A DNA stretch of 64,000 nt from Eledone cirrhosa (taxonomy: Eukaryota): assembly GCA_964016885.1 (NCBI GenBank), contig OZ024766.1, forward strand, positions 21,328,001 through 21,392,000. Reading direction: 5' to 3'. Positions 33,301 through 35,768 of this stretch are shown here, in pieces (positions within the stretch are counted from its first letter, which is position 1; every line of letters begins with the position of its first letter). Below the pieces are notes generated by a model. It ran no database searches. It saw nothing but the letters and a program-made list of their open reading frames with translations, and had not been told where the DNA came from. The position numbers and the translations under genes are program-made.

Positions 33301-35736
33301 GTGGTTGGTGTTAGGAAGGGAATCCAGCTGTAGAAACCAAACCAGAAACAGTTCTGTATGAGCAAGGCACGGTCCCCCCCCCCCGCCCCTGACCTGGCAT
33401 TGCTCACAACGGGACAACAACCCTAACCCTAACCCTAACCCATGCTATCGTGGAAAATGGACGTTAATCAACACTGATGATGCTGATGATGCTTTATATT
33501 CTCCATTTCAGATTCTGCTTCTTCCGGTGCTTGGAAACATCATTTCAAAGTTGGCTTTCTTTAACCTTTTCAAGATTTCGTGAGTATATCATCATCATTC
33601 ATCATTTCATTTTACGTCCACTTTTCCCTGCTTGCAAGGGTGGGACGGGAACTGATTCTGGCTTGATTTCTACAGCTGGATGCCCTTCCTAACACCAACC
33701 TCATTTACAGTGAGTGCTGGGTGCTTTTTTGCCGTGGCACCTCCACAACCACTTTGCAGTGGAATGATAGGGACCCCAGTCCCTATCATCTCATTTCTAC
33801 AGCTGAGTAAACTGGAGCAATGTGAAATAAAGTGTCTTGCTCAAGGAAACAACACATCACCTAGTCTGAGAATTGAACTCACAACCCTTCGATTGCAAGG
33901 CCAATGCTCTAACCACTAAGCCATGTGCCTATATATATATATATATGAACGGCAAAGCATAAACGAACTAAGGGAGAAATTAGAAATAAGAGGGATCAGA
34001 TGTTGTTTACTCGAGAGAAGGCTACGTTGGTACGGTCACGTGATGCACATGAAAGACGACAGCTGTATAACAAAGTGCAGGGCAATAAAAATAGACGGTA
34101 GCCACGGAGTAGGCAGACCGAGAAAAACCTGGGACGACTTGATAAATTCCGACCTCACACACTTACACCTCTCCAAGACAATGTCACTGGACCGAGATCT
34201 TTGGCGGTACTCAGTAATAGAGAAGACCCGCCTTTGCCTAAGTACAAAGCGAAACCTACAGTCAGTAGGCACCTCTAACAAAATACACCCCCGTCCCACT
34301 ACCCGCACTCCATCCACACCACCCCTTTCAATGTAAAGTTATGTTGGTACCACAACATCCAGCCTGAAACAAATGAGGTCGTGTAGGTGTCACGACAAAA
34401 AGCACCCAGTCCTCGCTGTAATGTGGCCGTGTAGGTAACACGGTAAAAACCTCCCAGTCCACACTGTAAATGTGGTTGGTGTTGGGAAGAGCACCCAGCC
34501 GTAGAAAACCCGTAGAAAATGTAAATGTTATATGAGATATTATGTGAGGTAAAGCTTTTACTGTGACAATGCAATAGTATATATAGAGTAATGTAAATGT
34601 TATGTGAGATATTATGTGAGGTAAAGCCTTTACTGTGACAATACAATAGTATATATAGAGTAATGTAAATGTTATGTGAGATATTATGTGAGGTAAAGCC
34701 TTTACTGTGACAATACAATAGTATATATAGAGTAATGTAAATGTTATGTGAGATATTATGTGAGGTAAAGCCTTTACTGTGACAATACAATAGTATATAT
34801 AGAGTAATGTAAATGTTATGTGAGATATTATGTGAGGTAAAGCCTTTACTGTGACAATACAATAGTATATATAGAGTAATGTAAATGTTATGTGAGATAT
34901 TATGTGAGGTAAAGCCTTTACTGTGACAATACAATAGTATATATAGAGTAATGTAAATGTTATGTGAGGTATTATGTGAGGTAAAGCCTTTACTGTGACA
35001 ATACAATAGTATATATAGAGTAATGTAAATGTTATGTGAGATATTATGTGAGGTAAAGCCTTTACTGTGACAATACAATAGTATATATAGAGTAATGTAA
35101 ATGTTATGTGAGATATTATGTGAGGTAAAGCCTTTACTGTGACAATACAATAGTATATATAGAGTAATGTAAATGTTATGTGAGATATGTGAGGTAAAGC
35201 CTTTACTGTGACAATACAATAGTATATATAGAGTAATGTAAATGTTATGTGAGGTAAAGCCTTTACTGTGACAATACAATAGTATATATAGAGTAATGTA
35301 AATGCTAAAGGGTTAAACAGCCATCATCTTCATCATTTTACGTATATTTAGATGTGTGTTTCTAAATGTGAGAGGTGCAATCTGTATATGTGATATGGTT
35401 TCTGTTTATTTTCTGTAGGTTTTCTGAGATATTTGGAACCGAGAAACCTTCAAAAGATGATTTATGGGACTTTTGGGTGGTGTTGGAATATAAACGGGGC
35501 TCCTGTATCAGCAGTCAGTGAGTATTCACCCTATATATATGAGATTCCTGATGATTTCTAAAGAATGAAACAGTTCTAGTCCTGTAGAATTTCATCTATA
35601 TATATATATGAGATTCCTGATGATTTCTAAAGAATGAAACAGTTCTAGTCCTGTAGAATCTCATCTATATATATATATATATGAGATTCCTGATGATTTC
35701 TAAAGAATGAAACAGTTCTAGTCCTGTAGAATCTCA

Positions 35737-35768
<32 letters not shown>

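Follow-up and report, generated by a model that had tools for sequence, protein, structure and literature searches.

Three hammerhead ribozyme motifs standing in tandem just behind a splice donor of the MEST gene of Eledone cirrhosa raise the question of whether the gene has adopted a self-cleaving RNA or whether a transposon has left its debris there. The locus lies in a 64,000-nt stretch of contig OZ024766.1 (forward strand), which as a whole is called the window here and to which all coordinates refer unless another sequence is named. A preliminary description of this stretch had drawn each motif as a type I hammerhead beside the MEST donor at 35518, and had named Penelope-like elements and domesticated intronic hammerheads as known parallels. 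The trio is arranged as follows.

35532..35538, + strand: (TA)n target run 5' of unit 1 (from sequence)
35539..35595, + strand: hammerhead unit 1 (motif and fold analysis), with stem I 5' strand 35539-47, core 35548-54, U10.1 35555, stem II 35556-65, U11.1 35566, G12-A14 35567-69, stem III 35570-85 with a central CUAG palindrome, A17 35586 and stem I 3' strand 35587-95
35596..35607, + strand: spacer, 2 nt of element tail and (TA)n (from sequence)
35608..35664, + strand: hammerhead unit 2, core 35617, A17 35655
35665..35680, + strand: spacer, 2 nt of element tail and a longer (TA)n (from sequence)
35681..35737, + strand: hammerhead unit 3, core 35690, A17 35728, followed by (CT)n(TA)n

The sequence confirmed the three motifs with their 69-73-nt spacing, coordinates and cleavage sites, and when the window was dinucleotide-shuffled 100 times, none of the shuffles held a motif this strong on either strand. 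The units are near-identical and 57 nt long each, with start-to-start distances of 69 and 73 nt. Every unit carries the full set of conserved hammerhead bases in type I order, with CUGAUGA at 35548, 35617 and 35690 and the GUA sites at positions 35586, 35655 and 35728; CUGANGA, GAAA, U16.1, H17 and a three-helix topology opened at stem I were found in 3/3 units. Stem II (UUC-UAAA-GAA) has 3 bp with U at both 10.1 and 11.1, and stem III (ACAG/CUGU) has 4 bp and an 8-nt loop. The suggested Infernal search with Rfam models returned no hammerhead family at the gathering score; a hammerhead model, HH9, was the best match, but at 15.2 and 14.8 bits it stayed below the 52 bits required.

Similar features occur elsewhere in the window. 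A hammerhead-like motif at 60454-60520 (+ strand, core 60462), with a long stem II and a palindromic AT-rich stem III, belongs to another abundant TA-targeting family and is also present at several other loci, and a lone hammerhead-like motif at 15958-15999 (+ strand, core 15963) has a 3-bp stem II with U at either side. A dispersed TA-flanked repeat at 35862-36062 and 16130-16318 ends in a near-perfect 110-nt palindrome. The arms of this palindrome resemble a hammerhead 3' half (GAAAC, a palindromic stem III loop and GUC), and an upstream CUGANGA was present in 0 of 25 contexts.

The identity of the host gene was established through the exon at 29506, not through the 32-aa exon adjoining the trio. 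The former matched 8 proteins among 10 candidates, the best being the MEST homolog of Argonauta hians, while the 32-aa exon as a query gave no useful match and, in one search, five repeat-protein hits. When the Argonauta hians protein (P0001, mesoderm-specific transcript homolog) was used as the tblastn query, 11 colinear pieces were found on the + strand. An Abhydrolase_1 profile search of the genome did not detect the short MEST exons. The gene and the intron were mapped as follows.

24200..41407, + strand: MEST gene (alpha/beta hydrolase), 11 exon matches (tblastn, 37-76% identity per match, colinear order)
35419..35517, + strand: MEST exon 5' of the trio, coding frame from 35420 (exact contig match ending at both boundaries)
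35518..38034, + strand: host intron of 2.5 kb, phase 2, with a GT donor at 35518 (contig) and an AG acceptor at 38033-38034 (sequence and next exon match)

A 1,144-nt contig of run X1 matched 35419-35517 exactly and departed from the window sequence at both ends. The contig is thus spliced and the donor is in use, which together with the 11 colinear matches bore out the MEST context proposed at the outset; the animal of run X1 may not carry the trio. In runs X5 and X6, no contig covered this exon. The trio is sense to the MEST pre-mRNA: unit 1 starts 21 nt from the donor, and the first cleavage site is 69 nt into the intron, which is filled with other repeats. Downstream of MEST, frames resembling exons of another + strand gene were noticed at 63467-63673 and in the contig beyond the window end (G000:C27, L174).

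The copy number of the motif was determined across the 3.0-Gb assembly. A 27-nt piece of the core had 9,393 exact genome matches (5,909 forward and 3,484 reverse), and the reversed control had none. Without a large satellite array described below, this corresponds to about 7,000 dispersed copies (twice the 3,484 reverse-strand matches). Among 30 loci taken in order along C1, a TA run lay at most 135 nt downstream in 28. In this sample, in which four inverted insertions were counted from both arms, an inverted copy was joined in 15 loci, a common upstream sequence in 11, and TA or other sequence abutted in 4. Sister subfamilies, which differ in the loop II sequence, accounted for 3,041 further matches, and in the 100 of these that were listed U.U stood at 10.1-11.1 in nearly all. 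Unit 2 of the window shares 64 identical nt with at least 29 other loci. The motif unit is therefore not peculiar to MEST but one among thousands of near-identical copies that landed in (TA)n. Run X5 (organism B) contained a contig with the same family end and native upstream sequence, and other contigs with the sister stem I; the family thus extends beyond the species label of the Eledone cirrhosa assembly.

The motif was traced to a coding element. Two of six longer stretches that were read contained a long open reading frame (ORF) on the strand of the motif, and the start of this ORF was found at 108 genome places. In 30 ORF-start loci, a complete motif lay upstream in 23, with the cleavage site mostly 136 nt before the ATG, and the ORF was open over the 503 codons read in 15. 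Four copies, picked from those 15 open ones and read to the end, all had the intact 713-aa ORF (4/4), by which the parent family is evidently young. The protein contains RWR at 38, DKT at 116, YRDD, CxCx5C at 566, YIGMT, CxxC at 666 and CxH at 694; YRDD and YIGMT mark a single ORF with reverse transcriptase (RT) plus, at the C terminus, an endonuclease of the GIY-YIG type. The copy in L176 is bounded by two motifs 4.8 kb from each other, and in L062 the motif lies about 1.4 kb past the stop codon. A Pfam search of the parent ORF gave GIY-YIG with an E value of 0.022, below the cut-off, and no RT family match. A protein search with the ORF found 684 relatives, almost all unnamed, and Pfam returned nothing at the cut-off for three of them. 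At L064:3284-4579 (- strand), an incomplete ORF belonging to another Hydra-like family (CxCx5C linker and endonuclease-like end) lies between two arms of the studied family.

The parent has insertion in (TA)n, terminal repeats with the hammerhead, and inverted truncated copies, all of which are features of the Hydra clade. The motifs listed for this clade in the parts of Craig et al. 2021 (PMC8557442) available to us are DKT, RWK, a CxCX5C linker, CxxC and CxH. In the same parts, the clade agrees with the Eledone element in having one ORF that encodes RT and, at the C terminus, an endonuclease (DKT, CxCx5C, CxxC and CxH), (TA)n targets, a terminal-repeat hammerhead, inverted truncated copies and U.U by the core. 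The Eledone element differs in having RWR instead of RWK and a length of about 3.7 kb against usually <3 kb, an 8-nt loop III with a central palindrome against 1-3 nt in the published Hydra hammerheads, and, unlike the description of the clade there, a microsatellite 3' region and a predicted TATA-type promoter at the ribozyme edge. Hydra-1_Obim of Octopus bimaculoides, as given in PMC8557442, is another family whose hammerhead and protein both differ from those of the Eledone element, and four short terms from the Eledone family were absent from the supplement parts of that paper. From the motifs and the by-eye likeness to the supplement alignments, we regard the parent as likely to be a Hydra-clade Penelope-like element. 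The Naiad clade was considered for its TA targeting and was rejected because the endonuclease here is C-terminal and Naiads lack canonical hammerheads. The type I, Penelope-like origin suggested at the outset was thus borne out by family copies linked to an RT-endonuclease ORF.

The preliminary description had cautioned that the U-U at the conserved 10.1-11.1 pair might lower activity. U.U in place of the purine-pyrimidine pair is indeed present in 3/3 units, but it does not serve as a sign of decay, since in 14 of 25 Hydra families (our count in File S2 of PMC8557442) stem II is flanked by U on either side; it is the usual state of Hydra-clade elements. ACAG/CUGU with GUA also occurs in three Hydra families in that material (Hydra-1_aMil, Penelope-1_NV and Penelope-1_SK), and U10.1-U11.1 is described in the relevant part of PMC3088659 as a natural variant and the best tolerated mispair. 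An alignment was made from 11 intact copies picked by hand: 8 out of 30 sister loci, 2 parents and 1 window unit. In it, two of the six stem I pairs were changed on both sides, amounting to about two independent changes, while the core was fixed and loop II was variable. Stems II and III were invariant, so that covariation neither supports nor opposes them. The existence of relatives with an intact stem II and a covarying stem I removes one ground on which the preliminary description would have withdrawn the motif. The free variation of loop II between subfamilies does not suggest a tertiary contact between stem I and loop II.

The junctions of the three units indicate how the trio arose. The window stem I has 9 bp against 6 bp in the parent element; the first 3 nt of its 5' strand in unit 1, which has one G.U pair in this stem, are foreign to the parent. 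The extra 3 bp are, on comparison with the parent, a product of the insertion junction, likely formed when the copy folded back on its own stem I, and locus L002 has a junction of this kind. The 5' junction common to all three units was found at 74 genome places, 3 of them in the window, and nowhere else among the 74 was it in tandem. The units also share one short 3' end point, which was found in 4/29 and 4/30 other copies. Three independent insertions with one shared junction appear very unlikely, and since the rare 5' junction is shared by all units, the simplest account, and a likely one, is a single short insertion followed by local duplication through the TA runs. A single insertion event would have placed a short copy in a TA run where the MEST intron begins, and the copy would then have been tripled in place by slippage or by unequal exchange between TA runs. 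Among 100 matches listed of 1,757, direct short tandems ahead of the large array comprised 11 junctions at 6 small loci, the trio included, and each small array had its own junction.

Other short arrays of the family were observed. At L165:2600-2900 (G000:C1:324.02 Mb), a 64-bp array of 3-4 units lies inside a TA run, and at L164:4255-4850 (G000:C1:350.2 Mb), 8 satellite-type 78-bp units with satellite variants have non-TA flanks. Element-end tandems with periods of ~221 and ~191 bp, possibly of retrozyme size, are present at G000:C1:67,880,843-67,881,312 and G000:C4:279,229,136-279,229,932, respectively.

The largest array is a satellite of hammerhead-only units at G000:C28:30,496,749 to ~30,873,700 (loci L148-L160, L166-L171, L179 and L180), with a 78-bp period over about 377 kb. 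Division gives about 4,800 units; the array was full at 17/17 short probes and in two ten-kb stretches, and continuity between the probes is assumed. The forward-strand excess of core matches stems from this one array. It starts with a TA run and an inverted element end, which are followed by the forward units, ends in a different hammerhead-bearing element end, and shows higher-order periods of 1.6-6 kb. Among 384 units (267 distinct), the mean substitution was 0.026 at 11 core positions, 0.033 in the stems and 0.017 at 9 free positions. The core and stems were intact in 185/384, and these units, which are not independent, gave no sign of selection on the core. One 10-kb stretch contained 26 perfect units, no two of them adjacent.

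The 5' ends of the dispersed copies pile up close to the core. With 27-mer probes starting at +9, -1 and -9 from the core, the reverse-strand matches were 4,378, 3,484 and 1,206, while the satellite excess stayed flat at 2,540, 2,425 and 2,356, and hence most copies begin within stem I. About two thirds of the dispersed copies that reach the core end within the next 8 bases, and 19 of 30 sampled junctions were 2-7 nt from the core. In the parent terminal repeat (L176:1718-1810), a TATA box lies 30 bp 5' of the first base of stem I, with a CCAAT box farther upstream, and the TATA box is retained in 3,325 copies. An initiator-like site lies at the first base of stem I itself. By these motifs, the terminal-repeat promoter (CCAAT, TATA and initiator-like site) is predicted to start transcription at about the first ribozyme base. 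Solo repeats would then give short, uncleaved, ribozyme-only RNAs, which the element enzymes might insert into (TA)n. Alternatively, the pile-up could be caused by fold-back of the cDNA at stem I. For comparison, the Penelope of D. virilis has an internal TATA-less promoter according to part of PMC2377424. The cleavage site, hinted at by one copy, was rejected as the determinant of the 5' end of the element: of 30 ORF-start loci just one begins there, an ORF-bearing copy that starts 2 nt into the 3' cleavage product.

Whether the units could cleave was approached by fold prediction. The hammerhead drawn for each unit in the preliminary description holds as a structure but not as the predicted fold of a monomer, for which the minimum free energy (MFE) structure was a non-hammerhead at -13.2 kcal/mol against -9.8 kcal/mol for the hammerhead; the predicted probabilities were 0.001 for the exact hammerhead and 0.03 for stem III. 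With two units, pairing was predicted across units (0.96 for stem I and 0.82 for stem III), and the active dimer was predicted to lie 9.5-11.9 kcal/mol below two monomer hammerheads. Shuffling of loop III (n=58) gave a median cross-unit stem III of 0.0, and 2/58 shuffles reached 0.82. The lowest predicted dimer fold, with stem II slipped onto G12-A13-A14, was 2.8 kcal/mol below the active register for two cores; this slipped stem II ruled out the two-unit MFE structure as the active dimer. When the exon and intron flanks were included, the predicted cross-unit pairing was <0.1 in one folding window and 0.53-0.64 in another. A lone unit would thus misfold and stay silent, whereas paired units might exchange the strands of stem III by way of the CUAG palindrome to form a double hammerhead that cuts slowly. 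The proposed cutting of the pre-mRNA with release of ~70-nt monomers is, by these models, possible only via the paired fold. The MEST pre-mRNA would receive at most slow, partial cuts 69-211 nt into the intron, which splicing would likely outrun or tolerate; in reporter work cited in the consulted part of PMC2995048, a hammerhead-cut intron was still spliced, and a fast HDV ribozyme blocked splicing. Low activity would agree with the available parts of two studies, in which Penelope-like hammerheads were inactive as monomers and of low activity as multimers (PMC4209133), and one of nine tandem dimers cleaved (Li et al. 2026, bioRxiv 10.64898/2026.07.22.740005).

We consider it highly probable that the trio consists of terminal hammerhead copies of an abundant, likely Hydra-clade Penelope-like family, inserted once and tripled, with slow cutting at most and no host function. 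A reading that differs from this solely in whether slow cutting occurs holds that the motif is catalytically dead everywhere and kept as a terminal sequence or protein-binding signal, leaving the trio inert. The predicted misfolding of monomer and dimer would fit it, as would the 5' ends of ORF-bearing copies, which are not clustered at the cleavage site (1/30), the short inserted copies, which retain both sides of the site and so point to uncut templates, and the weakness of Penelope hammerheads in vitro (in the part of PMC4209133 available to us). Against it speak a core that is fixed and a stem I that covaries between subfamilies while loop II drifts, the tolerance of U10.1-U11.1 as a natural mispair (PMC3088659, in part), and a loop III that appears, in the models, to be arranged for pairing between units. 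On balance we regard complete inactivity as unlikely, though it retains appreciable weight. That a very small mobile RNA circle was inserted, as a minimal retrozyme whose arrays would be transcribed, cut to 64-78-nt monomers, circularised and copied in a rolling manner by the element RT, seems quite improbable to us. Direct short tandems at six small loci and one giant array, the 8 satellite-type units on another chromosome, the tandem layout that is predicted to favour the paired fold, and a life cycle of this kind proposed for Penelope-terminal-repeat-derived repeats in the accessible part of Li et al. 2026 speak for it. Against these, the junctions differ from one small array to the next, and that of the window is tandem nowhere else among 74 places, as expected from local duplication; the satellite core (0.026) varies as often as free positions (0.017) and stems (0.033); the 8-unit piece is without TA flanks; and cleavage was seen in only 1/9 tandem dimers in the same part of Li et al. 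2026. A broader proposal would make the family the smallest retrozyme-like element yet, with a promoter at the first ribozyme base, 64-78-bp tandem units extending up to the 377-kb satellite, and array transcripts, that of the MEST intron included, cutting themselves as double hammerheads into ~70-nt monomers or circles reinserted by Hydra enzymes; to this we assign a small chance.

Under host adoption, the trio would be an intronic cassette whose cuts in the MEST pre-mRNA, close to the donor, adjust MEST output, by analogy with what has been proposed for the HH9 and HH10 hammerheads of amniotes. The sense orientation 21 nt from a used donor invites this reading, and the tandem state, rare among dispersed copies, and the longer stem I are modelled to favour and steady the paired fold. 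However, the identity of unit 2 with many dispersed copies marks the insertion as young, sense intronic landings are expected from thousands of copies, other TA-targeting repeats sit in the same intron, the Rfam HH9 score is far under its threshold, and in Xenopus introns hold about 43% of repeats of this kind (Li et al. 2026, part of the preprint). A domesticated intronic hammerhead is expected as a single-copy, non-repeat sequence, and the trio is neither. We therefore judge host adoption to be very improbable, and the domestication or special MEST tie raised by the preliminary description is not supported, given the thousands of (TA)n copies (28/30 of those sampled) and the existence of a spliced contig. 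The position of the trio in MEST is likely due to chance, and the trio itself is probably commonplace transposon debris, not a ribozyme that MEST has adopted.

Compared with known systems, the family is expected to behave like the dimer-type hammerheads of Penelope-like elements. HH9 (RECK) and HH10 (C10orf118) are likewise type I and on the sense strand of an intron, but they are single loci conserved across species (PMC3088659, in part), whereas the Eledone copies are young and number in the thousands, and reach 15 of 52 bits with the HH9 model. In metazoan Penelope-like elements, the minimal hammerheads with a short stem III (Cervera and de la Pena 2014, PMC4209133, in the sections consulted) share the type I order, a palindromic stem III region, predicted dimers, low expected activity and thousands of solo copies from truncated elements; they differ in a stem II of 6-8 bp with G10.1-C11.1 and an extra base, against a 3-bp stem II closed by U.U and a 4-bp stem III with a long loop in Eledone. 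Non-LTR retrozymes resemble the trio in their head-to-tail type I hammerhead repeats from a Penelope-like terminal repeat (available parts of PMC7229834 and of Li, Clavereau and Pollet 2026). The trio falls under the working definition of at least two consecutive units in the accessible part of Li et al. 2026, and its 69-73 nt lie within the 51-972 bp range given there; circle-forming retrozymes, at 170-400 nt in the part of PMC7229834 seen, are larger than these units. The satellite, at ~4,800 units and with no sign of selection on the core, is about 16 times the largest array (300 units) in that part of Li et al. 2026. The available part of a repeat paper on O. vulgaris (PMC13282606) describes Penelope-like families as recently active and contains no mention of hammerheads, and we found no report of this octopus hammerhead family or array in the literature outside subscription papers.

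For MEST, the trio probably has little consequence, being the chance landing of a common transposon end. The satellite and the 5'-end pile-up are more interesting than the trio. The former shows clearly how a single transposon end can give rise to a large satellite, the junction of the insertion being still recognisable at its start, and the pile-up suggests that many 'truncated' copies are in fact short transcripts of solo terminal repeats copied in full. The family, being young and having intact elements, is a useful test case for the role of Penelope hammerheads: with native monomers, inverted pairs, dimers, the trio and a 4,800-unit array of one ribozyme, it makes the idea that such a ribozyme works only as a dimer testable.
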